Shown one piece after another: positions 74 through 29,498 of a DNA stretch of 64,000 nucleotides. The notes below the pieces were generated by a model that saw only the letters and a list, made by a program, of their open reading frames with translations, was not told the origin of the DNA and made no database searches. Each line of letters opens with the position of its first letter. Within the stretch, counting starts at the first letter, position 1. This DNA is from Bdellovibrionota bacterium (GTDB lineage: Bacteria; Bdellovibrionota; UBA1018; CAUJDS01). A program made the translations under genes and the position numbers. The stretch lies in assembly GCA_963169695.1 (NCBI GenBank), contig CAUJDS010000011.1, forward strand, positions 121,499 through 185,498. Direction: 5' to 3'.

Positions 74-3000
74 ATGGAGGCGTCGGGTCTTGAAGTCTTA
101 CCCCGAAGTGCGCACGCTACCGTAGCGCCGTTTCAAGCACGTGTTCGAAGCATGCTCGATAAGCTGATGAAGCCCGAGGAGAAGGATGGCAAAGTCTATT
201 TTATCCTTGCCAATGATCCTTCGTTCAATGCCTATTTCATTCAACTCGATAAAAATACTCGCGTCGTCACCATCCACGCGGGACTCCTCGAAGGACTCGA
301 GAATGATGACGAACTTGCCTTTGTCCTTGGACACGAACTGGAGCACGGATGGTCGACGCTGGAGAAGTATGCGGAGGGTCTCCAGAGTGAAATGCGAAAG
401 AAACTTCTTCAACGCGTAGTAGAGAACGAAGTCGACGCCAAGTCGGTAGCTAAGAGAATGATCCCCGCCGGTTTCAATCCCTACTCTGCGGATGACGTCA
501 TTACGCGTTGGCGCAAGGCAGCGCCCGATCACCTCTCCAAAACGCATACCGCTACCAGCTCGCGTTCGGATACGATGAGCTTAGCTCTCACTGCAATGCG
601 GAAAACTGAAGGCATGGAACTTCCCTCTCCAGATCGACCTCGAGAGCGGAGAGTTATCGGAGCGATCAAAGATCGCTGGATCGAGCAGCAAGCGTACGTT
701 GATTATTTTGTGAAGGAGGCTGAAAAAGTAGCCACCATAGAGATTCGACGAGGCAACCACTTAGAATCAACCCTCAAAAACGAAGCGGTCACCAGCGCGT
801 TTGATAATCCTTCAATCGCCGATGCCATCAAAGATCGCAATGATTTGGGACGCATTGGCCACCAATGGACCAAGAGTGCGGGGGATCGTGTGGAACGACT
901 TCTTCCCTCCAGGATTTCCGAGAGAACTCGCGCGGACCTTGTCCTTAAAGCCCGATCTGAAATGGTAGCCAAGTGGACGGACGAGATCAATGCATGGGCG
1001 GGAGACCCAAGCCACCCACTATCCCCAAAGGATCTCGCTCGCGGGCTCGCGCTCCTTCACTACGATACGAAGCCGGAGGCAATGGACCTTGAATACACAG
1101 AGCGCGACATCAAGGACAATAAACAAACCATTGATGAAACACGGGAGAGATTGAAAGCCCCTGGGCGAACCCAAAAACAAATCAAGGAAGACGAAGATTT
1201 TCTTGAATACACACTGAAGAAACAAGAAGTAGATCAGACCAGACTAAGGCGCGCTCAGCAGCAACTGAAAGAAGCCAGGGTCCACGCCAAAGCTGTGCAG
1301 AAAAAAGCGGACGCTTTTCTGTCCAGCCACGCGGAAGCGCTTCTTCTCAAGACCGACTCACCCACTCGCATGGCCATGGCCCCTCTTCTATCTGCGCATC
1401 CTGACAAGGACCTACGCGCGCGCTACCTGCCTAGAGTATTGGAGCAATTTGTCAAAGACTTCTCTGCACTCGATGCCAACGCTCGATTCCGCACTCTCAG
1501 CAATATGGGGGTCTACACGAGTGCGCACGCTCCGGTCATTGAGTTGTTTCAAAGTGCTTACGCCCATCAGCCAGCTCGCGCCAAGAAACTCTACGCAGCC
1601 TTCTTACGCAGCATCGATCCGAGCAACTTCGATCACTGGCAGCATTTCCAGGCTTTTATGGAGTTGAGCAGCGGCTTTAAGCAAGAGCCGGGACTGCTAG
1701 AGACCCATAAGAGCGTCCTTCACGAAGCGGGCAAGAAGCTCTTGCAGGCATGGGCCACTGAAGATCCCTTTACGGATTGGAAGGATATTCCCTTCGTCGC
1801 ACTTCGCCGCACCCTAGAGGATCGCCGAGAAATTGGCTCACTGATGAGTACGGGGGTTTTTGAAAACGGGCTAGAAGGTCCCGAATACTTAGAGGCCAGG
1901 CGCCTACGAACCTTCAACCTTGTAAAGATCTATAGAAGCAGCCTTTCAGAGCCAGAAAAGCAACTCCTTTCAGAAGAGGATATTCGGGACTATGTCGCCT
2001 TATTTAGAACCAGAGAAACCAAGCTCCTGCCAGAAGAAGTGAGAAAGCTTCCTAAAGTCATTGACGCCCTTTTATCTCGATCCAAAAATCCCATCCATAT
2101 AAAATGGCTTGCCTTAGCAGCCGAGAGCTTCGCTGAAGAATGGTCGCTGTACCGATTGATGCAAGACTATGGGCCCCTCGATTCACCCACAAAAAAAGAG
2201 AAGTTCTTTCAATTCGTCTTAGCTTACGGATCTCAGATGAAGACCCGACGGGTCGTAGATATGTCACGCCCTCTCGCTGATCCGGATATGAAGGTCACTC
2301 TCGAGCTTACCGATTGGATGGCGAAAAATCACCCCCAAGAAACCTGGCTGATCAGAAAGATCCTTACCCCCTATGACATGGTCCATAGAACACCTTCATT
2401 GACTTCAGGAGACGAAACTCCGTTTTACAGAATGTTGAAGAACATCGACTACAAAGAAGTACGAGAGCGCAAACTCCATCTCGAAGCCAACACGTTCAAG
2501 AAGCACTACCGGTCTTATGCTAAGCTTGGTCCTCGAGAGAGAGCACTGAGGAGTCTCCAAGCCACCGCCACTGAACTGAAACTTGAAGAGGTCCCTGCGG
2601 AAATATTCCAATGGCTCAATGCTGAAGGTTCTACGAAGCACCGGGCTCAGACACTCCTTGGAATGCTGGACTGGTCTGAAGTTGAGAATGCGCTCAAAGA
2701 CTTCCCTTTCAAGCAGGTGGTAGAAGGCGTCGCCGAGATCCTCAATCAGCCGCCACTTCATGGCCGGGGCAACGAAATTGAGCTTGCAGAAGCCTTTGTT
2801 CTTGCCTCAGTCAAAAGCAGAAAAAGCACTCGACAAACGGAGGAAATCTTTGAAGACCTCTGGAAGCGGGGTGAGAAATTACCTAAGCTGCGTGAGGTAC
2901 TCACTGACGAGAAGCTCTTGCCTTTCCTCACGCGCCACGCGCATCGAGAGCGTGTCGTCAAGGGCATCCTCTCGCGTGAGCTCGGAGTCTCTTGGAAACC

Positions 3001-4939
3001 CGTAAGAAATCGCCAGGCTGGGATTGCACTGGCGCCAGATAATCAGAAGTCCCAAAGAGAGGTGGTCAAGAAGAGTCGCGATCTCATCGAAAAGCTTCTG
3101 ACTAAGCCCTCGCCTCTCCGTGATGGAATCCTCGAAGACCTTGGCAATGCCTTGCTCACCAATGCCGCCGAAACGGACTATCTCTTCCAACACAAGATCT
3201 CACTTGAGAGGTGGGAGAGTATCGAAGGACTCGAAGCGCTCGATGCGCCCCAACATATTCGCAATATGCAAAAGCCCGACGAGCAACTGGCCCTGCTCGA
3301 ATACCTCACTCAGCAAATTGACTACCCAGAAGCTGCTCGTCGAATCAAAATCCATGAATGGCGGGAACCGGAGGCTATAGAAGCCGGCCTCAAACTCACG
3401 AGCGGAAACTTTCGGGACGCGCAGCCGTTGGTTCGCACTTATGTCTTGATGTCACTCTTGGATCCACAGAAAGGACTCCTCGCTCAGGCTGAAACCGCTG
3501 AACGAGTCTACGAAATGATCCTTGGCCCCAAAGCCTCTCGCTCGGTGCTTTCTGAGGCAGTATTTCGGGCCTATATGAAGGCACTCCCTGCTCCCGATCA
3601 GCGAGTGATCCTTGCAGGTCTTGTCGCCACTTTTACGGATCGTCCACGCGGCGCGAGCGGTGTATCGCTCAAGTCTATTTTGGAATCACTGGGCCCCATC
3701 GGCGTAAAGGCGGGGCAGTTCTTTCGTACGAGTGGTCTTGCTCCAAAGAAATACCACTCGGAACTCGATGACCTCTTCTCCCAAGCAATCCCTCCAACCA
3801 GAAAAGAAGTGATGGACCGCATGAGGAGGATCTATGGCAAGGACCTGGTTGATGTAGATCGAATCTATCACCTGCTTGGATCGGGATCGATCAACTACGT
3901 GGTATTGGCGGACATCAGGGATCCCACAACGGGAGTGGTTCGCCCGGTCGCCGTACGCTTTATGAGAGACAAAGTAATTGGCCAGATCCGCAACGAAGAA
4001 ACGCTATGGAAGAAAGTCACGGCGGAACTGAACGCTCACAGTGATCCCCATGTTCGTGCTTTTTCAGGACACGTCCAAGAGGCACTGAACTCTTCGATGG
4101 AAACACTACGCGAGGGCGGTAGCGAAGTGGACCTCATCAAGGACCGAGAACTGTCTCTCATTGCTAACCAAGGCTATGGTCAAGCCCATGCTCGATCCAG
4201 CGGATATGCGATTGAAGCGCTGTCCTTTGACAATCTCTTGCAGATGCAAGTGCCCGCAGGCGAGGCGAAGACATCTTCCATCCTCCCATTTGTGGACGCA
4301 ACAGAGATCCATGATGTTCAAGACGCTAAAAAACTCTCTCAAGACATACTTGACGCCGAGCTTCGCGCGATCTTTGAGGTCGGCGTCTTCGATCCCGACG
4401 GCCACCCAAAGAATTGGCTGGTTGACGCCAAAGCCAAGAAGCTCTATCGAATCGATACTTCGCAACTCAAGAGAGTCGAAGCCACTGAGCGAGAGAATCT
4501 TAAGAGAGTCTTTGCTTTTCTGCTTCAACCGTCACCTGGCAAAGCAGACCTCCGAGCGATGGCTCCTGCTCTAGAATCGATCTTCGACACCAAGGTCAAT
4601 GCCCTCGCCCTTCAAAACAGCGTCAAACAAGTCGTGGGATCGCCGGGCTACCGAAATAAAGCCAATCCTCTTGAGCGAATATTTTTTCTGAGGGACAAAG
4701 TCACAGAAATCCTGAAGTCTCAGGGGCTCATCAAAGACGACCTTATTTTTTCGAAACAGATTCGATGGGTCAATATGAGCCTGTCCAAACTCAATCTCTA
4801 TCGAGAAAGAGTTGGAAACCTCGCCTTCCTACAGGCTTTGGCCAATGCCACCAAGGCTTCAAAGACTCGAATCGCTCTGGGCTATGGCAAGAATCTCTTA
4901 AAACGCTGCCTTCTGCTACGCCTCAACGATGATCCTTGA
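74..4939 (+). CDS. Very large (1621 aa) multidomain protein: N-terminal M48-like Zn-metallopeptidase module, long alpha-helical/charged middle region, C-terminal ABC1/UbiB-type atypical kinase domain
   Basis: Single 4.9-kb ORF. The N-terminus 'FNAYFIQLDKNTRVVTIHAGLLEGLENDDELAFVLGHELEHG' matches the M48 (HtpX/Ste24-type) core 'NAFA..vvvtsGLL..L.n.dELaaVLaHElgH', including the HExxH. Around aa 1200-1480, 'LGPIGVKAGQFFRTSGL...LLGSGSINYVVLADIRDPTTGVVRPVAVRFMRDKV' and 'FDPDGHPKNWLVDAKAKKLYRIDTSQL' match ABC1/UbiB kinase motifs (iAaASiaQVHrA..dG..VAVKvqrP and HaDpHPGNilv....l.liDfG). No signal peptide or TM segment is evident. Confidence 0.6.
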   Translation: MEASGLEVLPRSAHATVAPFQARVRSMLDKLMKPEEKDGKVYFILANDPSFNAYFIQLDKNTRVVTIHAGLLEGLENDDELAFVLGHELEHGWSTLEKYAEGLQSEMRKKLLQRVVENEVDAKSVAKRMIPAGFNPYSADDVITRWRKAAPDHLSKTHTATSSRSDTMSLALTAMRKTEGMELPSPDRPRERRVIGAIKDRWIEQQAYVDYFVKEAEKVATIEIRRGNHLESTLKNEAVTSAFDNPSIADAIKDRNDLGRIGHQWTKSAGDRVERLLPSRISERTRADLVLKARSEMVAKWTDEINAWAGDPSHPLSPKDLARGLALLHYDTKPEAMDLEYTERDIKDNKQTIDETRERLKAPGRTQKQIKEDEDFLEYTLKKQEVDQTRLRRAQQQLKEARVHAKAVQKKADAFLSSHAEALLLKTDSPTRMAMAPLLSAHPDKDLRARYLPRVLEQFVKDFSALDANARFRTLSNMGVYTSAHAPVIELFQSAYAHQPARAKKLYAAFLRSIDPSNFDHWQHFQAFMELSSGFKQEPGLLETHKSVLHEAGKKLLQAWATEDPFTDWKDIPFVALRRTLEDRREIGSLMSTGVFENGLEGPEYLEARRLRTFNLVKIYRSSLSEPEKQLLSEEDIRDYVALFRTRETKLLPEEVRKLPKVIDALLSRSKNPIHIKWLALAAESFAEEWSLYRLMQDYGPLDSPTKKEKFFQFVLAYGSQMKTRRVVDMSRPLADPDMKVTLELTDWMAKNHPQETWLIRKILTPYDMVHRTPSLTSGDETPFYRMLKNIDYKEVRERKLHLEANTFKKHYRSYAKLGPRERALRSLQATATELKLEEVPAEIFQWLNAEGSTKHRAQTLLGMLDWSEVENALKDFPFKQVVEGVAEILNQPPLHGRGNEIELAEAFVLASVKSRKSTRQTEEIFEDLWKRGEKLPKLREVLTDEKLLPFLTRHAHRERVVKGILSRELGVSWKPVRNRQAGIALAPDNQKSQREVVKKSRDLIEKLLTKPSPLRDGILEDLGNALLTNAAETDYLFQHKISLERWESIEGLEALDAPQHIRNMQKPDEQLALLEYLTQQIDYPEAARRIKIHEWREPEAIEAGLKLTSGNFRDAQPLVRTYVLMSLLDPQKGLLAQAETAERVYEMILGPKASRSVLSEAVFRAYMKALPAPDQRVILAGLVATFTDRPRGASGVSLKSILESLGPIGVKAGQFFRTSGLAPKKYHSELDDLFSQAIPPTRKEVMDRMRRIYGKDLVDVDRIYHLLGSGSINYVVLADIRDPTTGVVRPVAVRFMRDKVIGQIRNEETLWKKVTAELNAHSDPHVRAFSGHVQEALNSSMETLREGGSEVDLIKDRELSLIANQGYGQAHARSSGYAIEALSFDNLLQMQVPAGEAKTSSILPFVDATEIHDVQDAKKLSQDILDAELRAIFEVGVFDPDGHPKNWLVDAKAKKLYRIDTSQLKRVEATERENLKRVFAFLLQPSPGKADLRAMAPALESIFDTKVNALALQNSVKQVVGSPGYRNKANPLERIFFLRDKVTEILKSQGLIKDDLIFSKQIRWVNMSLSKLNLYRERVGNLAFLQALANATKASKTRIALGYGKNLLKRCLLLRLNDDP

Positions 4940-9419: not shown

Positions 9420-10595
9420 CTAAGAAAACCCTGCGACCAGGGCTTCTTCGAAATCTCGTAGGGGAAGTATTTCGATTCCTTCAGCAGTCATTTGCTTTGA
9501 GTCTCCTGAGTATACAAGCACTCTTTTTTTTACGCCCTTCAATGCAGCAATGGATTGAAGACCCCTGAGGTGTTCCGGTCGAATCTTCTTGGATGCCTTT
9601 ACTTCAATGGCAAAGAGGTCTCTCCCAGACTTAAGAAGAAAATCAACTTCGGTCTGCCCTTTGGAAGGTGCCCAGTAAAACACCTCGTCGTAACGACGAG
9701 CATTCTCGATTTCGTTTCGGATCATCGCAAATACAAATCCTTCCAAAAGACTCCCTCGCTCTTCGGGCGCGAGAGTTCCATAGACCCCCTTTGCAGCCCG
9801 AACAATTCCCGGATCGACCCAGTAAAGCTTCGGTTTCTTTTTTTCTCGAACAGTAATCTTGGCCTGGTACGGTTGAAGCCTTTTTATGAGGAGAGTATCT
9901 TCAAGAATCTGCAGGTATCCTTCGACGGTCTTTCTTTCAATTTCGACATCTCGTGCGAGACTGGACACATTGACTACTTGTCCATGGTACAGCGCGGCCA
10001 CAGGAACACTCCTCGCAAAACCAGCCAAGTTTCTGACCAACGCTTCCGCTTGAATTTCCTCGCGGATATAAAGCTGGACATAATCCTTGAGAGCCTCGTC
10101 TCTATTTTCTTGATCCCATACCAAAGGAATACTTCCCCACCGAAGAACGCTATCAAGATCGAAGTCAGATCCTAGCTCTCTTGGCAAAAGTGGCAGCATA
10201 GAACGCAACTTAGCCCTGCCTGCAAGAAGATTCACTCCAGCACGATTAAGCTTTCTGGCACTTGAGCCCGTGAGAGCAAACCTCAATCCACCGTCTTCAA
10301 TTCCTCGATGAACCTCGTTCAGCAAATTGGGTAGACGCTGTACTTCATCCACCACTACCCAAGAACCCGGTTTGAGATGTCGGATTCGATTTCTAAATGC
10401 CTCGGGGTCTACCAGGAGGTTCTGGTAGAGTCCTTCGTCCAAAAAGTTGAACCAATGTGCCTGAGAGAAGTGCTCTTTTAACCAGGTGCTCTTCCCCGTT
10501 CCCCTTGCACCAAAGAGGAAGAAGGAACCTTCTGGAGGCAAAATCGTTCGTGAGTACATCACTTCCATTATTAGTCGCATTTTGGAACTATACAA
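9420..10595 (-). CDS. COG1373-family AAA+ ATPase (AAA_14 + DUF4143 architecture), paralog A
   Basis: Walker A 'FLFGARGTGKST' and Walker B 'WVVVDEVQRL'. The conserved 'LTGSSARKL..AGVNLLAGRA' block is typical of COG1373 ATPases. Protein identity to the ORF at 13909..15060 is about 55-60%. Confidence 0.85.
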   Translation of the reverse strand: MYSSKMRLIMEVMYSRTILPPEGSFFLFGARGTGKSTWLKEHFSQAHWFNFLDEGLYQNLLVDPEAFRNRIRHLKPGSWVVVDEVQRLPNLLNEVHRGIEDGGLRFALTGSSARKLNRAGVNLLAGRAKLRSMLPLLPRELGSDFDLDSVLRWGSIPLVWDQENRDEALKDYVQLYIREEIQAEALVRNLAGFARSVPVAALYHGQVVNVSSLARDVEIERKTVEGYLQILEDTLLIKRLQPYQAKITVREKKKPKLYWVDPGIVRAAKGVYGTLAPEERGSLLEGFVFAMIRNEIENARRYDEVFYWAPSKGQTEVDFLLKSGRDLFAIEVKASKKIRPEHLRGLQSIAALKGVKKRVLVYSGDSKQMTAEGIEILPLRDFEEALVAGFS

Positions 10596-10612
10596 CTCAA
10601 AAAGATCAAGGG

Positions 10613-10633
10613 CCCTGGTAAGTCCATGCTTTC
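10613..10633 (+). repeat. Degenerate copy of the 21-bp island motif (ccctggtaagtccatgc)
   Basis: 'ggtaagtccatgc' compared with the consensus 'agtaagtccgtac' matches at 11 of 13 positions. It lies 20-40 bp upstream of the ATPase A start codon. Confidence 0.3.
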
Positions 10634-10721
10634 ACTTAAGAGATTGACCTAATGCGTTAACCATTGTACCCAAGGGACAACTTTTGACTTTTTTGTCGCG
10701 TTTGCAAACGGAGGCCGTGAC

Positions 10722-11246
10722 GTGTTGAATTTTAGGAAACTCTGGGACTCGCACCCCTACCAAACTAGCGTAAACGATCCCTGCAGCAGCAATGGCAAGC
10801 CCAACTATTCAGATCAATGCGCGATCCGAATTGGAGCCACGCTCGCAAAATGCGGAGTAAAGTCCAATGCTCTGTCAGGCACCAGGCATTGCTGGTTTCA
10901 CAGTTCATCCGAAGGTCACATACTTTCTGCAGAGGAACTAGCGGGAGCACTAGAAAGGACCAGATTGCCTGGGTCTCAAAACATACGCAAGATACATCCA
11001 GATCTTTTTAAGAAGGAATTGATTGGAAAAACGGGAATCATTTTTTTTAAGGACTATTGGCAACGCACCTCAGGCAATTCCAAAGAAAGTTTCCGAAATC
11101 GATCCGGCGATCACATTGATCTATGGAATGGCTATCGCTTGGCCCACATGCGATCTATCGTTCAGCTGTATCTTAGAATCGGGTCTATCGGACTTGGTTC
11201 AGATCACTCTCAAAGCAAAGAAATCTGGTTTTGGGAGGTCCCATGA
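10722..11246 (+). CDS. Tae4-family (type VI amidase effector 4-like, papain-fold) peptidoglycan amidase toxin
   Basis: 'DQCAIRIGATLAKCG' compares with Tae4 'NACPIRMSYVLN', which carries the catalytic Cys. 'IGKTGIIFFKDYW......SGDHIDLWNGYRLAH' compares with Tae4 'IGKKGIIVVKGHGWSNARGHVTLWNGSICSD', which carries the catalytic His. The product is 174 aa with no signal peptide. Confidence 0.6.
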   Translation: MLNFRKLWDSHPYQTSVNDPCSSNGKPNYSDQCAIRIGATLAKCGVKSNALSGTRHCWFHSSSEGHILSAEELAGALERTRLPGSQNIRKIHPDLFKKELIGKTGIIFFKDYWQRTSGNSKESFRNRSGDHIDLWNGYRLAHMRSIVQLYLRIGSIGLGSDHSQSKEIWFWEVP

Positions 11247-11452
11247 AAACCATCTCCACCGTGATCGGCGCACTCAGTGGAGGGGTTCTTTCGTTTCTCT
11301 GCTTTTCGCTCATTTCATGGTGGCAAATGCGTCAGCTAGGTTACGAGCCGCGAGTATCGGATCAGCTCATTGACACCTTTCTTCTTTGTACGCCATTTTT
11401 GATGATGTTCACTGGATGGCTTGGCTATCGCCGAGCTAGAAAATCAGTTTAG
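11231..11452 (+). CDS. Small two-TM membrane protein, candidate cognate immunity protein of the Tae4-like toxin
   Basis: The ORF overlaps the toxin stop codon, with Met codons at 11231 and 11243. It has two hydrophobic helices: 'TVIGALSGGVLSFLCFSLISWW' and 'TFLLCTPFLMMFTGWLGY'. A 5'-truncated duplicate of its 3' end lies 186 bp downstream. Confidence 0.4.
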   Translation: MGGPMKTISTVIGALSGGVLSFLCFSLISWWQMRQLGYEPRVSDQLIDTFLLCTPFLMMFTGWLGYRRARKSV

Positions 11453-11500
11453 GCACCGGAGCTAGCTTCAACTTGCCAGTACAACATTTTGATGCGACGA

Positions 11501-11521
11501 GTCCCAGAAGTAAGTCCGTAC
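11501..11521 (+). repeat. 21-bp island motif copy (gtcccagaagtaagtccgtac)
   Basis: Close match to the consensus GTCCCATAAGTAAGTCCGTAC. It sits between the two tandem copies of the immunity-gene 3' end. Confidence 0.6.
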
Positions 11522-11533
11522 CATCCCCGCTAA

Positions 11534-11626
11534 CCGCGAGTATCAGATCAGCTCATTGACACCTTTCTTCTTTTTACTCCATTTTCGATGACGTTCACTG
11601 GATGGCTTGGCTATCGCCGAGCTAGG
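11534..11626 (+). repeat. Tandem duplicate (~93 nt, ~93% identical) of the 3' end of the 11231..11452 gene (copy A at ~11348-11440); an orphan immunity-gene fragment
   Basis: Copy B keeps the reading frame and encodes PRVSDQLIDTFLLFTPFSMTFTGWLGYRRARK*, against PRVSDQLIDTFLLCTPFLMMFTGWLGYRRARKSV* in the intact gene. An in-frame TAA lies just upstream. No start codon is present. Confidence 0.7.
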
Positions 11627-11935
11627 AAGTAAATCGTCTGCCCAAGTACGAACTTTCATCAGAGGTATTTTGCATCGCTACCTCAGTGGAGATCTTTTGG
11701 ACCCGCAGGCAGCAGATTTAGCAAAAATTAGAAAGTGGGCATAGATGTGAGTACTTCATCAATTTCTCACTTAGGACAGACAGCATAGGCTGAGATATTG
11801 GGCACCTGTTGAACTCATCTAACGGAACGAACAAAGGAAAGCGAGAATTTGCTTGGTTTTTTGGGGAATCAGAATCAAAGTGATTCTGAGAAGTTTCGCT
11901 ACACTGCACTAGAAAAAATTTTTTTATGGAATTGA

Positions 11936-13354
11936 ATGGATAAGTCTAAGAGCGAGGGACATCTTAAGCCGACCTGCATTTTCCCATTTTTAGGGACACT
12001 CCTCCTCTTCTCGTGTACACATCCAGGTAAGGTTTCCACGGAAAGGGATGATGCTTTTCCGCTTCACGATTCACCAGCAGACTATCAGTCCCCTTCCGAA
12101 AGCCTTCGCCTGTATTTTGAAACAATTGAAAAGGCCAACCTTCTTTCCAAGGCAAAGAAGAACCGTTTAAGTTCCGAGGAGCAAAGGTTCTTGAGTGCTG
12201 CAGCTTTTCTTCTGCAAGAGCAGTTAAAACTCGAATCGCAACTCAAACAGAAAAAAGAGATCGAAATTCTTCCCGGTCGCTCCTATTCGTTTGCACTGGA
12301 GTCATTCTGTGTCAATTCTGGAAAGGAGCGGCCGATACCAGGTGATGGATTCCGACTTGGTTCCCTAAAAGGAGCATCTGAGGAATGGTTGCCACTGATA
12401 CTTGATGGATATTTCGACAAAAAAATTCCGCAAGAGCGGATTCAGATTCTGATTTGGGCGCTTTTGTCCGACTCTCGATTTGATGAACTAACGCCGACAC
12501 AGCAAGCTGACCTTCTAAGACTTGTCCCAAATGCGAGAATGCGATTCGGAAACCGGCGACTTAAAAACGCTGCAAAAAGTATTCTAGATGATCTACTGCC
12601 AGATGAAGTCAGGGATCTGCAAAGTCGTTTTGAAAACCACCGCTTGATTCTGCGTGATGTATCCCAAACCTATAAGGAAATCTCTGAATTACTGGCGCCC
12701 ATTCCGACCCGAAATCAATCAATTGAGCAAGGGTGGATAAAGGTTCATTTGGGCTATTTGGCTCGAGTGAGCTCAATTACCGGATACTCTTCCGTGAGAC
12801 TCGAAATCTTTATGCCTCTAGGTGTGGATCCGCTCCTTCGTCCTTCTAAATACATCGCACTACCCGGCTCGGGGCAGCGATTAGCACTGAGCGCCAATGT
12901 AATTCCATTTTGGCATGCTCCTTATCGAGAGATCACCGATAGGCTGGCAAACTTGGGGGCGGGGCGTGAACTATCCAAGGCCGAACAAGACCTGATCCGA
13001 AAGTATCCCCTCGATGCGTACAAAGCTTACTCCAATTCTCTTACGGCGACTGAAAGTGCGCTAAAACACTTTCCTCAATTTCCAATCCCTCACAATAATC
13101 CAGCCGATGCTTTTCGCCATTTTGTCTGGGCTGCACTGAATACAAAGGATTTGGGCGCTTCTCGAGCGCGAGAATTTTTAGAAGCCCATGAAGATCGGCC
13201 CAACCAACCTAAAGGCGAGGCCGAAATCGATCGCTGGAATAACGAAAAAGGAATTGAAACGGCTGAAATACTCGGATCCCTTGCGACATTAACCGATTTC
13301 GAGAAAGCAGGTCTTGATGCACTTCAAAAGCAAGAACTTAGGACCTTGCGATGA
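11936..13354 (+). CDS. Lipoprotein with a conserved C-terminal domain (candidate secreted effector/toxin), function unknown
   Basis: The lipobox 'LLLFSC' follows a hydrophobic N-terminus. The C-terminal block 'NNPADAFRHFVWAALNTKDLGASRAREFLEAHEDRPNQPKGEAEIDRWNNEKG' looks like a conserved catalytic-type module. Its stop overlaps the start of the next gene (ATGA). Confidence 0.5.
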   Translation: MDKSKSEGHLKPTCIFPFLGTLLLFSCTHPGKVSTERDDAFPLHDSPADYQSPSESLRLYFETIEKANLLSKAKKNRLSSEEQRFLSAAAFLLQEQLKLESQLKQKKEIEILPGRSYSFALESFCVNSGKERPIPGDGFRLGSLKGASEEWLPLILDGYFDKKIPQERIQILIWALLSDSRFDELTPTQQADLLRLVPNARMRFGNRRLKNAAKSILDDLLPDEVRDLQSRFENHRLILRDVSQTYKEISELLAPIPTRNQSIEQGWIKVHLGYLARVSSITGYSSVRLEIFMPLGVDPLLRPSKYIALPGSGQRLALSANVIPFWHAPYREITDRLANLGAGRELSKAEQDLIRKYPLDAYKAYSNSLTATESALKHFPQFPIPHNNPADAFRHFVWAALNTKDLGASRAREFLEAHEDRPNQPKGEAEIDRWNNEKGIETAEILGSLATLTDFEKAGLDALQKQELRTLR

Positions 13355-13818
13355 AAGTTTTTCGGAGTTTTCTAACATTCTCAAAGAAAGCTCTGCTGGT
13401 ATACTTGGTTCTCTGTGTTTTTATGTTCTTTTTTTCAAAAACGGATACCTGTTTTTATTTGCTTCAGAAAATAGTTTACGGTCATGAGTTTCTTACCGCA
13501 GCTCAAGCCGAAAAAAAATGGGGCCGAATGCTATTTGATGCAACAAAATTTCGAACGAATCAAAATCGAAAGGAAATGGTAGCAGACATTATTCGCAGCC
13601 AAATTCTTATTGGGCTCACCTATGACGAAGTGAAAACCCTATTGGGAAATAGTGGAGGGGGCTATTATATCTCTGACGAAGTCCTCACATACCATGTATT
13701 TGTGGCTCACAATTCAAGGCGGGATGTGACTGAAGCTTATAGTCTCCTAGTTTTGACAAGCGACAATTCCGACCTGCGGAGTCGAGTAGATAGAGTTTAT
13801 CTTTGGAAAGACCGTTAA
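13351..13818 (+). CDS. Small membrane-anchored protein, candidate immunity/partner of the upstream lipoprotein
   Basis: The 155-aa ORF is translationally coupled by an ATGA overlap. It has an N-terminal TM segment 'ALLVYLVLCVFMFFF' followed by a soluble domain. Confidence 0.4.
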   Translation: MKVFRSFLTFSKKALLVYLVLCVFMFFFSKTDTCFYLLQKIVYGHEFLTAAQAEKKWGRMLFDATKFRTNQNRKEMVADIIRSQILIGLTYDEVKTLLGNSGGGYYISDEVLTYHVFVAHNSRRDVTEAYSLLVLTSDNSDLRSRVDRVYLWKDR

Positions 13819-13908: not shown

Positions 13909-15060
13909 TCAAACCAATCCCGTTTTCAGTTCATCCGAAAATTGCTGAAATCCCATAACTTCAATCCCATCGCTCGTCTCTTGATGCTCGACTGAGGGAT
14001 AGACAAGAATCCGGCGCTTTAACTTTGGAAGATCCCCAATAGACTTCAGACCAGCAAGGTCATCCTTGCGAAGGCGCTCACCGGACTTGACTTCCACTGC
14101 AGCAAACTTTGAATGGGCTTTCACAATAAAATCTACTTCCAGATCCGGCGTACCCCAATAGGATATTTCGTCTATCGTCCCTTGATAATACTGAGCGGAT
14201 CGCAGTAGCATAAAAACAAGTCCCTCAAAAAGCGGGCCCCTTTCCGTAGCAACCAAGGGACCCCAGTCCTCCCGAATGGCACGTACCAAACCCGGATCTA
14301 CCCAATAAAACTTTGGATGCCTCCTCTCTTTCACTCTTAGGCCAGACTCAAAGGGGTACAGGAGCTTTCCTAAAAGGGTGTCTTCTAAAATAGAAAAATA
14401 ATTTTCTACCGTCGGGCGTTTCACAGCTGCATCACGCGCCACAGAAGACAAACTGAGCGTCTGCCCATGAAGGAGAGCACTCACCTTCAAAAATCTCAGA
14501 AAGCTTGGAAGATCCTTAACAAGTGCTTCGGTTTGGATTTCGTCTCGGATATAAGTTTGAACATAGGCTTTGAGTCGCTCTTTCTTGTCCTCAGAGGCAA
14601 ATACAATCGGCAAGGAGCCAAATCTAAGGATCTGGTCAAGATCAAAGTCCTTCCCCAATTCTTCGGGCACAAAGGGAAACATCAGTTTGGACAATGCTCT
14701 ACCTGCAAGCAGATTGACCCCGGCACGCTTCATTTTGCGCGCACTCGATCCAGAGAGCGCAAACTTCAATTGCTTGTTCTCGATCCCCCAATGAACTTCA
14801 TTCAGCAAGGAAGGAAGCCGTTGAACTTCATCGATCCAAACCCAGTCTCCTGCCTTCAGAACTTGAATCTTAGAACGAAATAATCCAGGTTCACTCGCAT
14901 AGCGTATGAATAACTCCTGTGAAAGCAGGTCCACATGCAGAGCGGGGCGTAGGTGTTCTTTGAGGAACGATGTCTTCCCGGACCCTCGTGGACCAAAAAG
15001 AAAAAAGCTCGTATTTGGGAGCTCAAAAAGTCTTCCGTACATGAAATCTATTTTATCCAC
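13909..15060 (-). CDS. COG1373-family AAA+ ATPase (AAA_14 + DUF4143), paralog B
   Basis: Walker A 'FLFGPRGSGKTS', Walker B 'WVWIDEVQRL' and the 'LSGSSARKMKRAGVNLLAGRA' block are present. It is collinear with the 9420..10595 product along its whole length. Confidence 0.85.
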   Translation of the reverse strand: MDKIDFMYGRLFELPNTSFFLFGPRGSGKTSFLKEHLRPALHVDLLSQELFIRYASEPGLFRSKIQVLKAGDWVWIDEVQRLPSLLNEVHWGIENKQLKFALSGSSARKMKRAGVNLLAGRALSKLMFPFVPEELGKDFDLDQILRFGSLPIVFASEDKKERLKAYVQTYIRDEIQTEALVKDLPSFLRFLKVSALLHGQTLSLSSVARDAAVKRPTVENYFSILEDTLLGKLLYPFESGLRVKERRHPKFYWVDPGLVRAIREDWGPLVATERGPLFEGLVFMLLRSAQYYQGTIDEISYWGTPDLEVDFIVKAHSKFAAVEVKSGERLRKDDLAGLKSIGDLPKLKRRILVYPSVEHQETSDGIEVMGFQQFSDELKTGLV

Positions 15061-27908: not shown

Positions 27909-29498
27909 CTACTTTGCCTGAGTTGCGCTGGGACCCGCGGGACTATTAAGGGAGCCTATTACTGAGGCTGAGTTCATCTTACTCTTCTGATTCGAAACTT
28001 TTGGTGAATCGATCGATGGAGCATGCAATGAGGCTTCTATTTTTCCAATGGTTTTGAGCAGAATTGAGAGCTCACTTATAGCTACAGGATCTTTCTCTCG
28101 AACTTTATTGATCTGAGCTTGGTAGCCGAGCTCCGCTTCTTTGACTGAAACATTGTAACCCTTCGCGATTGCCCACATTATGGCTGGCAGAATCGTAGGA
28201 TTATCCTGAATGTAGGGTAAGGCGGCAATTTCTTTAAGGGATAGAAGTAGAGATCCAATCTCAGTTGTCTCTAATTCAGAAAGCTCTAAGGCGCTCGCAA
28301 CTTTATCTTTGTCACCTATAAAGCGCTTTTTCATTCTCATGCTATCGAGAAGAAAATGCTCAAAGACAGAGTGAGTGTCTTTTTTTCTGTTTTGCTTTGG
28401 ACTCAGGGCCGCAAACTTTGCAGCCGCAAGAAACTCAGGATCGGCCTTGATTTCTTCGGACAAGATCTTTTCATACTGTTTCTTAAATTCCATATCGGAA
28501 CGATTTGCGAGATAGATGAAATAGGAAGGCCCCGCCACCGCCCCATTATCCATTAACAGGTTCATTATCTGCGGAAGTCTAGTGGGAGCTGCAGAATCAA
28601 GGGGTGTTCTACCGAATTCGTCCTTCGCATTTACCGTCGCCCCATTATCGATTAACAGCCTTACCATGCTTTCATCTGCTGAAAAAGCTGCTCCATGAAG
28701 GGGCGTTGTACCTGAATTACTCTTAACGTTTACCTTCGCTCCATTCTTAATCAACAGGTTTACTATTGCCAAGTTACCTTTAAGGACGGCTCGGTGAATT
28801 GGAAAGACTCCGCTAATGTTCTGCGCAGATGCGACTGCACCCTTTTCTATTAGGAGAGCAACTGCGTCTAATTTTCCGGCATTGACTGCTTCGTGAAGTG
28901 GCGTGTCACCCTCGGCGTCTTTGGCGTTGACGTCCGCGCCCTTTGAGATCAGTAAGTTTATCGTTTCGAGACTGCCTTCGTGAGCTGCGAAGTGAAGGGC
29001 TGATTGTCCACTAAAATCTCTGACGTCTACATCCATTCCTTTTTTAATCAACAATTCAGCTGCTTTGGCCTTTCCTGCTCCAGCAGAACTATGAAGAACC
29101 GTTTCACCATACACATTCGATTTGCCTTTAAATTCTACGCCAACACTCATCAGCAGGATTAATGTGTCAATTTGACCCGCACGAGCTGCATAGTCCAGCA
29201 CCGTATCGCCACGAACGTCGCTGGCGGTTAGGTCTGCTCCGTTTGAAATTAATCGCATAACTATATTAGCACTCCCTTCGCTAGAAGCGCGAAATAGAGG
29301 TGAATCGCTACTGTATGAAAGGCTATTAATACTAGCGCCTGAATGAATCGCGGCGTTAACTCTTTTTTCATCTTTTGCCTCAATAGCGTACCTTAGCTCA
29401 CTCTGGAGTGCTTCCTTCTCGTCAGTGACTTGAGCATGAGCGAAAGTAGTCAAAAGGAGAAATCCCAGACTGGCACAGCAAACTCTTGGAGGTATCAT
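27909..29498 (-). CDS. Secreted ankyrin-repeat protein
   Basis: Signal peptide, then about 9 ANK repeats such as 'GDTPLHEAVNAGKLDAVALLIEKGA' and 'GTTPLHGAAFSADESMVRLLIDNGA'. There is a non-ANK C-terminal region. Confidence 0.85.
   Translation of the reverse strand: MIPPRVCCASLGFLLLTTFAHAQVTDEKEALQSELRYAIEAKDEKRVNAAIHSGASINSLSYSSDSPLFRASSEGSANIVMRLISNGADLTASDVRGDTVLDYAARAGQIDTLILLMSVGVEFKGKSNVYGETVLHSSAGAGKAKAAELLIKKGMDVDVRDFSGQSALHFAAHEGSLETINLLISKGADVNAKDAEGDTPLHEAVNAGKLDAVALLIEKGAVASAQNISGVFPIHRAVLKGNLAIVNLLIKNGAKVNVKSNSGTTPLHGAAFSADESMVRLLIDNGATVNAKDEFGRTPLDSAAPTRLPQIMNLLMDNGAVAGPSYFIYLANRSDMEFKKQYEKILSEEIKADPEFLAAAKFAALSPKQNRKKDTHSVFEHFLLDSMRMKKRFIGDKDKVASALELSELETTEIGSLLLSLKEIAALPYIQDNPTILPAIMWAIAKGYNVSVKEAELGYQAQINKVREKDPVAISELSILLKTIGKIEASLHAPSIDSPKVSNQKSKMNSASVIGSLNSPAGPSATQAK

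Follow-up and report, generated by a model that had tools for sequence, protein, structure and literature searches.

A Tae4-family amidase gene with a candidate membrane-hairpin immunity gene, related to integron cassettes, in a Bdellovibrionota-like genome

Tae4 amidases are textbook type VI secretion system (T6SS) cargo and are paired with soluble periplasmic immunity proteins. Described systems include Tae4 of S. Typhimurium, E. cloacae and A. tumefaciens and Ssp1/Ssp2 of Serratia marcescens, and papers on Pantoea and on P. fluorescens F113 report canonical hcp-linked tae4/tai4 genes. The locus described here lies in a 64,000 nt stretch of a Bdellovibrionota assembly [GenBank GCA_963169695.1, contig CAUJDS010000011.1, positions 121,499 to 185,498], referred to below as the window. 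It consists of a gene for an amidase of the same family (PF14113), a gene for a small predicted membrane protein, here called the partner, and a fragment of another partner copy. With moderate confidence, it is read as a horizontally acquired module of effector-immunity type, in which the immunity protein is a membrane hairpin not of the Tai4 type and a second partner copy has become a pseudogene. It is part of a large sister clade of the described effectors, which differs from them in T6SS-unlinked coding (loci at 43% identity or above), in a predicted hairpin partner of ~70 aa and in the cassette mobility of its closest members. Literature searches on Tae4 combined with integron, and with orphan, Hcp or immunity, returned no paper on T6SS-unlinked coding, a hairpin partner or integron mobility.

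The amidase gene and its partner

The first gene encodes a Tae4-family amidase, on which its hidden Markov model (HMM) match, its fold and the conservation of its Cys and His motifs agree. An initial annotation, made from the letters of the sequence, had aligned the product by eye with Tae4 and had noted that it lacks a signal peptide and any PAAR, VgrG or Rhs fusion, and that the window lacks T6SS genes; all of these observations are borne out. The match to Pfam Tae4 scores 78.8 bits (E 4.8e-22), above the curated cut-off of 27 bits, and covers the full domain (profile 1-125 of 125). It spans residues 29-171, so that a fused PAAR, VgrG or Rhs domain would not fit; a Pfam scan finds no extra domain, and no signal peptide is present, the N-terminus not being hydrophobic. 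A protein search retrieved 552 homologues at E <= 0.001. Among the matches listed, PF14113 is present in 120 of 120, and 'T6SS effector amidase Tae4 family protein' is the name given wherever the source supplies one.

A single-sequence search of the PDB gave marginal matches (E about 0.08), and profile and fold searches were needed. The AlphaFold2 (AF2) model, built from a 61-sequence alignment (predicted local distance difference test, pLDDT, 81.6; predicted template modelling score, pTM, 0.81), has the papain-like fold of Tae4. Its top six Foldseek matches in the PDB are all Tae4-family effectors, namely A. tumefaciens Tae4, Serratia Ssp1 (two entries), the S. Typhimurium protein (twice) and E. 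cloacae Tae4, and the seventh match has an E of 0.5. The conserved motifs are 'DQCAIRIG', which includes C33, and 'GKTGIIFFKDYW...GDHIDLWNG', which includes H131. C33, which starts helix 33-43 of the model, corresponds in the alignment to the catalytic C50 of Ssp1, while D130-H131-I132-D133 is invariant in the 61 sequences and lies on beta-strand 129-135. C33 and H131, with D133, are the predicted catalytic residues. C21 and C57 are further invariant cysteines in the same alignment. Identity to the solved Tae4 members is only 16-24%, and the amidase therefore represents a distinct clade inside the family.

The overlapping open reading frame (ORF) with two transmembrane (TM) segments that was initially proposed as an immunity gene proves to be a conserved, immunity-like partner, but its extent is revised. 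Two independent gene calls and the alignment of homologues support a start at ATG 11243, which is most likely the true one; the TTG at 11231 (73 aa) first assumed is a possible alternative. Stop and start codons overlap by 4 nt (ATGA), with GGGAGG 5 nt upstream of the partner ATG, and the partner appears to be translationally coupled to the amidase gene through this overlap. The product combines two hydrophobic segments with a basic C-tail and is predicted, by the positive-inside rule, to form a two-TM hairpin with both ends in the cytoplasm (N-in/C-in) and a periplasmic loop of ~17 residues in which GYEPRVSDQ lies. Of 73 partners, all have a net positive C-tail and a non-negative N-terminus, and 62 have an acidic loop.

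A contig search for amidase relatives found 523, the top match being 68% identical, and 80 related loci were fetched (individual loci are given L numbers below). Pseudomonas brassicacearum, P. corrugata and Pseudescherichia vulneris have a version of the pair at 47-50% identity. In these, a small ORF overlaps (by ATGA or a few bases) or abuts the end of nearly every Tae4 homologue, and is usually 68-90 aa long with two hydrophobic segments. In the closest relatives the partner is clearly a homologue of the one in the window (compare FSLISKYQIAQVGYTPSQSDELIDIF with FSLISWWQMRQLGYEPRVSDQLIDTF), and a partner HMM run over all loci detected 83 ORFs, 76 of them directly after a Tae4 gene. The slot is occupied by a ~145-aa 4-TM protein in a few loci, and by a ~177-aa protein with one N-terminal hydrophobic, signal-like segment in L025 and L040. 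The window partner has no match to Tai4 and no other significant Pfam match, FtsX being the sole sub-threshold match (22 bits); it shows neither homology to Tai4/Rap nor the make-up of a soluble periplasmic protein with a signal peptide. A word-indexed database search with the 69 aa retrieved only the partner itself, and HMMER over 1.84 billion representatives returned about six small relatives plus three spurious matches to long proteins. The partner thus appears to evolve fast.

No T6SS family is present among the ~45 ORFs of the window scanned with Pfam, and the locus is not linked to a T6SS. The same holds for the relatives examined at 43% identity or above: no T6SS gene was found within 10 kb on either side in L083-L087, L090 and L091, within 8 kb on either side in L095, or among the upstream neighbours of 10 further loci, the set covering Cellvibrionaceae, Limnobacter, Ectopseudomonas, Thalassomonas and metagenomic loci plus a Pantoea plasmid. 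Coding away from T6SS genes is a property of the whole clade and is not special to this genome. A search of the literature on the phylum and on T6SS found no statement on the presence of a T6SS in Bdellovibrionota.

The closest relatives are integron gene cassettes

In many of the related loci the partner ORF runs into a conserved sequence, for example CCTAACAAAAAGCTCAAGCGGACGCTGAAAAGCGCACCGCTTAGCTTGGCGTTAGG, which is a canonical integron attC site with R''-L''...L'-R' boxes. The recurrent partner C-terminus 'LTKSSSGR' is translated attC; since unrelated partners that read into attC share this tail, it can mislead annotation and may make conservation appear where there is none. A covariance model was built from 12 sites of the related loci. 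In its structure 82.6% of cells are paired, a share that falls to 31-39% when the pairing partners are slid, and compensatory changes occur at 9 pairs. Searched against 79 loci, it located 45 sites, all on the Tae4 strand. They form arrays of up to 7 sites in L004 (positions 780, 3372, 4220, 5051, 5905, 6906 and 9240), 6 in L014, and 4-6 in L010, L029 and L064. The closest cassette-clade relatives are 63-69% identical to the window amidase. An attC directly follows the partner in 6 of the 7 closest relatives, and L091, the closest (69% identity), has one on each side. Cassette-borne relatives have an R' box, GTTAGGTG, ~35 nt before the start codon, and L004 and L083 carry successive Tae4 cassettes. 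With attC sites at its borders, the amidase-partner pair of the closest relatives is therefore a genuine integron cassette, and across Gammaproteobacteria, Burkholderiales and Desulfobacterota the pair is mobile as a unit.

In a neighbour-joining (NJ) tree the cassette clade has the window copy as its sister. Neither a 3' attC nor an integrase, attI or array nearby was found. The covariance model gave a best match in the window of 11 bits (E 2.9), not at the locus, and no attC or remnant of one after either partner copy; no integron integrase family occurs among the ~45 ORFs scanned. By eye, 'CTAGAAAA' and 'TAGCTT' resemble R''/L' pieces, and a lone 'GCGTTAACC' ~70 nt upstream of the amidase start weakly resembles the R' box, but the latter is a single short match that is not significant, and none of these resemblances is counted as evidence. 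No consensus sigma-70 promoter was found in the intergenic region upstream of the amidase gene. Given the sister position, the loss of attC and the placement in an island within a housekeeping chromosome, the pair was most likely acquired from the cassette pool.

Three relatives occur in other settings. In L087 (10001-12189), a metagenomic gammaproteobacterial contig, the genes that follow the Tae4 pair are, in order, one for a bacteriocin, an ORF of 79 aa and an IS66 transposase gene, and the whole looks like a small competition island. In Erwinia psidii (L065, 6610-10731) the pair stands right after terminase and portal genes at the end of a P2-like prophage, a moron position. Burkholderia phage ST79 [NC_021343.1; L094, 1603-3119] carries a PAAR gene, a Tae4-family gene and a 112-aa ORF. 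This moron adjoins the tail genes of a P2-like phage and looks like a phage-borne T6SS effector module.

Immunity function and competing explanations

Downstream of the partner gene, the initial annotation had recognised an in-frame, 5'-truncated duplicate of the last ~32 codons, and this stands. The direct repeat (11348-11442 and 11534-11628) is 95 nt long with 89 of 95 positions identical (94%). The copies are 186 nt apart from start to start (62 codons) and in the same frame, and an in-frame TAA (11531-11533) precedes copy 2. Some Logan contigs (runs ERR10643334 and ERR10643335) terminate within copy 1, at 11436, and a second set (ERR10643334 and ERR10643333), 100% identical to the window, begins within copy 2, at 11596; such breaks are to be expected of a k=31 assembly graph at a 33-nt exact repeat. 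The repeat is real and not an artefact of one assembly. The fragment reads PRVSDQLIDTFLLFTPFSMTFTGWLGYRRARK, followed by the stop, and 3 of its 6 differences in 95 nt are non-synonymous (C->F, L->S, M->T), two of them placing Ser and Thr in TM2. Truncated and 94% identical, with half of its differences non-synonymous, it therefore appears to be the decaying remnant of a near-identical second partner copy. Beyond the repeat, the sequences around the two copies have nothing in common. Simple tandem duplication of a 186-nt unit was considered and rejected, as the 91-nt tails after the two copies are dissimilar. The Tae4 HMM, run on all stop-to-stop ORFs of the window, detected no second Tae4 remnant between or near them. 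Successive cassettes as in L004, or tandem partners as in L052, are plausible precursors. The duplicate had been called a classic footprint of cassette displacement. This is only loosely apt: what remains is a decaying and 94% identical remnant and not the divergent orphan of an earlier module.

Intact partners without an intact amidase gene of their own are found in the relatives. Pseudescherichia vulneris (L052, 10805-11053) has a second full-length partner in tandem, and stand-alone partners occur in Thalassomonas (L064, 12655-12915) and in a Kangiellaceae metagenome-assembled genome (MAG; L082, 4293-4514). In L053 (8783-9249) all that stands before an intact partner cassette is a decayed C-terminal Tae4 fragment. 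Because partners occur as orphans, in duplicate and without the toxin gene, and the partner can be replaced by a non-homologous protein, immunity is favoured over a holin function, and the partner is likely to be an immunity protein.

By family precedent, the amidase, a papain-like (NlpC/P60-type) cysteine enzyme, would cut the gamma-D-glutamyl-meso-diaminopimelic acid (mDAP) bond of peptidoglycan stems in the periplasm. The partner hairpin would sit in the inner membrane, where its periplasmic loop would neutralise the amidase, and it most likely protects the producer or any other carrier of the gene. The pair would have been taken up horizontally from the integron cassette pool, have lost its attC and then have become fixed in the chromosome. 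The conservative guess for export is that the amidase travels as orphan cargo of the Hcp type, using a T6SS whose genes lie elsewhere; alternatively, the module may be kept mainly for the immunity gene.

Several points weigh against this reading. The activity ascribed to the amidase is extrapolated from its family, and toxicity and protection are presumed. A loop of ~17 residues would be an unusual immunity determinant for a peptidoglycan amidase, and in the sub-clade of the window itself it is about neutral and not acidic. Known Tai4/Rap immunity proteins are soluble periplasmic proteins. No T6SS gene lies next to any relative examined at 43% identity or above, the only T6SS-linked relative seen being the PAAR-Tae4 moron of phage ST79, at 32% identity, and the case for T6SS dependence of the clade comes down to homology and database naming. 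Cassette ancestry of the window copy is a phylogenetic argument with no attC relic behind it, from an NJ tree that has no support values and in which the window branch is long.

As no member of the clade examined is linked to a T6SS, a T6SS-independent role is possible. In its strongest form, which is considered unlikely, the whole clade works without a T6SS as a self-contained, integron-mobilised pair with minimal hairpin immunity and an unrecognised export route, captured by a Bdellovibrio-like host for use, for example, against the prey wall or competitors. Another reading, raised in the initial annotation, would make the amidase a predation weapon, exported into the prey periplasm by a T6SS-less predator through some other route while the hairpin protects the predator itself. 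The Bdellovibrionota-like host, the absence of T6SS genes from the 64-kb window and, by family precedent, an enzyme that would attack the Gram-negative wall are in keeping with this. So is an analogous case of self-protection, the Bdellovibrio ankyrin protein Bd3460, which guards against the cell's own DacB endopeptidases. However, the amidase has no signal peptide or recognisable export signal, the gene is absent after topA in the nearest available relative, and it looks like a recent import from a cassette pool common to non-predators and not like a predation gene conserved in the lineage; this reading is considered very unlikely.

The pair might instead be a holin/endolysin-like autolysis module, or one resembling 'type 10 secretion', in which the partner is a class II holin or pinholin that passes a cytoplasmic amidase to the wall, leading to self-lysis or to the release of other proteins such as neighbouring toxins. 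An amidase without a signal peptide would fit such a role, as would the tight translational coupling of the two genes and a partner whose size, two TMs and basic tail are typical of class II holins. The surroundings point the same way, with no T6SS gene linked to any close locus, a Pyocin_S/Cytotoxic bacteriocin gene directly downstream of the pair in L087 and a prophage-end position in L065. Against this, a Tae4-family gene is found in only 1 of 50,697 phage genomes, and there as a PAAR-linked moron and not in a lysis cassette. The window has no phage lysis context, the partner matches no PHROG or known holin family, and the Tae4-like protein matches only phrog_27157, of unknown function. The enzyme gene comes first and the membrane protein second, and the partner slot can be filled, as in L025 and L040, by the ~177-aa protein with a signal-like segment. 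Stand-alone, duplicated and toxin-less partners make sense for immunity genes and not for holins. Finally, the invariant, non-catalytic C21 and C57 may form a disulfide, which suggests a protein built to act outside the cytoplasm. Taken together, these features make a holin improbable.

It is also conceivable, though doubtful, that the locus is an inert hitch-hiker or an immunity-only relic, in which an amidase with no delivery route in this host sits in a locus that has begun to decay. It would then persist by chance, or because the partner shields the cell from Tae4-type attack by neighbours or prey. The loss of attC, the pseudogenised partner copy next door and the slightly low G+C content of the island would be expected of a relic, and L053, where Tae4 has decayed beside an intact partner, provides a precedent. 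No Bdellovibrionota occur among the other named homologues, most matches being nameless. Yet the amidase ORF is full length with all invariant family residues intact, both genes have uninterrupted reading frames and strong ribosome-binding sites, and contigs from several independent runs are identical except for one difference, which lies outside the amidase and partner genes. An effector-immunity-type module taken from the cassette pool is accordingly the reading retained below.

Genomic setting and comparison with described systems

TopA from the window is 61-67% identical to proteins of Bdellovibrionales and Bdellovibrionota bacterium MAGs, which points to a deep-branching, uncultured, Bdellovibrionota-like host. 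The surrounding region is housekeeping chromosome with topA, leuS, ftsK, a photolyase gene and two-component genes. Within it, the amidase-partner module occupies part of a 3.3-kb island that is bracketed by two ATPase paralogues on the same strand (Table 1) and has a G+C content of 0.43-0.48, slightly below most of the window. The island is absent after topA in the nearest available relative, a Tara Oceans MAG. Recombination between the flanking paralogues could lead to its gain or loss.

The island also holds a second two-gene unit. Its 472-aa product has a lipobox (LLFSC) near the N-terminus and a C-terminal DUF6973 domain (Pfam E 3.4e-15), a domain for which no paper was found in the literature. 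The unit could represent another secreted pair of toxin/immunity type. No PDB sequence match and no PHROG match was obtained for the pair, and homology to a 509/136-aa gene pair that follows the Limnobacter Tae4 cassette was considered and rejected. Elsewhere the window encodes a 1621-aa protein (74-4939, + strand), in which Pfam recognises nothing but an M48 peptidase segment at the N-terminus, as well as a 529-aa protein with ankyrin repeats (27909-29498, - strand).

Table 1. Features of the amidase-partner locus and the surrounding island (window coordinates).
Feature	Position	Strand	Details
AAA_14/DUF4143 ATPase gene, left flank of island	9420..10595	-	Pfam assignment
Divergent intergenic region upstream of amidase gene	10596..10721	+	Examined by sequence and by comparison with upstream DNA of relatives
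Amidase ORF	10722..11246	+	GTG start, 174 aa; Shine-Dalgarno GGAGG 8 nt before start
Partner gene (candidate immunity gene)	11243..11452	+	ATG start, 69 aa; gene calls and homologues
Repeat copy 1	11348..11442	+	3' part of partner gene (loop end, TM2, tail); repeat search
Spacer between partner gene and fragment	11453..11533		Unique, 81 nt; ends in in-frame TAA
Putative 5'-truncated pseudogene fragment of second partner copy	11534..11632	+	32 codons and stop, no start codon
Two-gene unit	11936..13818	+	472-aa predicted lipoprotein and 155-aa ORF with hydrophobic N-terminus, ATGA overlap
Second AAA_14/DUF4143 ATPase paralogue, right flank of island	13909..15060	-	49% identical to left-flank copy

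If the hairpin is an immunity protein, it would be among the smallest immunity determinants for a wall-degrading toxin, and one that acts from the membrane. If the clade is independent of the T6SS, automated 'T6SS effector' annotations would be misleading for hundreds of genes. The finding of the pair in a Bdellovibrionota-like genome indicates that this cassette pool extends far beyond the hosts usual for it, by transfer across phyla.

The closest described systems are the Tae4/Ssp1 effectors. The window amidase shares their family, but its identity to the solved members is low, neither hcp, vgrG nor another T6SS gene lies next to its gene, and its closest relatives are integron cassettes. 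As with Tai4 and Rap1a-Rap2a, the partner gene lies directly downstream of the amidase gene and neutralisation presumably faces the periplasm. However, those proteins are helical, periplasmic and made with a signal peptide, whereas the partner is a predicted 69-aa membrane hairpin with a short loop and has no sequence relationship to them. The module is thus not a Tae4-Tai4 system in the strict sense, being of another immunity type and lacking T6SS linkage.

Like the cassettes of sedentary chromosomal integrons, the closest pairs are promoter-poor, share a single orientation, end in an attC of ~57 nt and stand in arrays; unlike them, the window copy has neither attC nor a nearby integrase and lies in an ordinary chromosomal island. 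The extra partner sequence downstream recalls the orphan immunity genes and arrays at T6SS loci such as the auxiliary clusters of V. cholerae, to which the full-length orphans of L052, L064 and L082 correspond more closely, the window copy being a start-less 32-codon fragment at 94% identity and not a divergent full-length gene. Class II holin-endolysin cassettes likewise couple a small two-TM protein with a basic tail to a wall hydrolase that belongs to the NlpC/P60 superfamily and lacks a signal peptide, but the order of the genes is reversed here, phage lysis context and PHROG matches are lacking, and partners occur as orphans or in duplicate. Compared with these systems, the enzyme family is known, and the partner type and the mobile context have no description in the literature searched.

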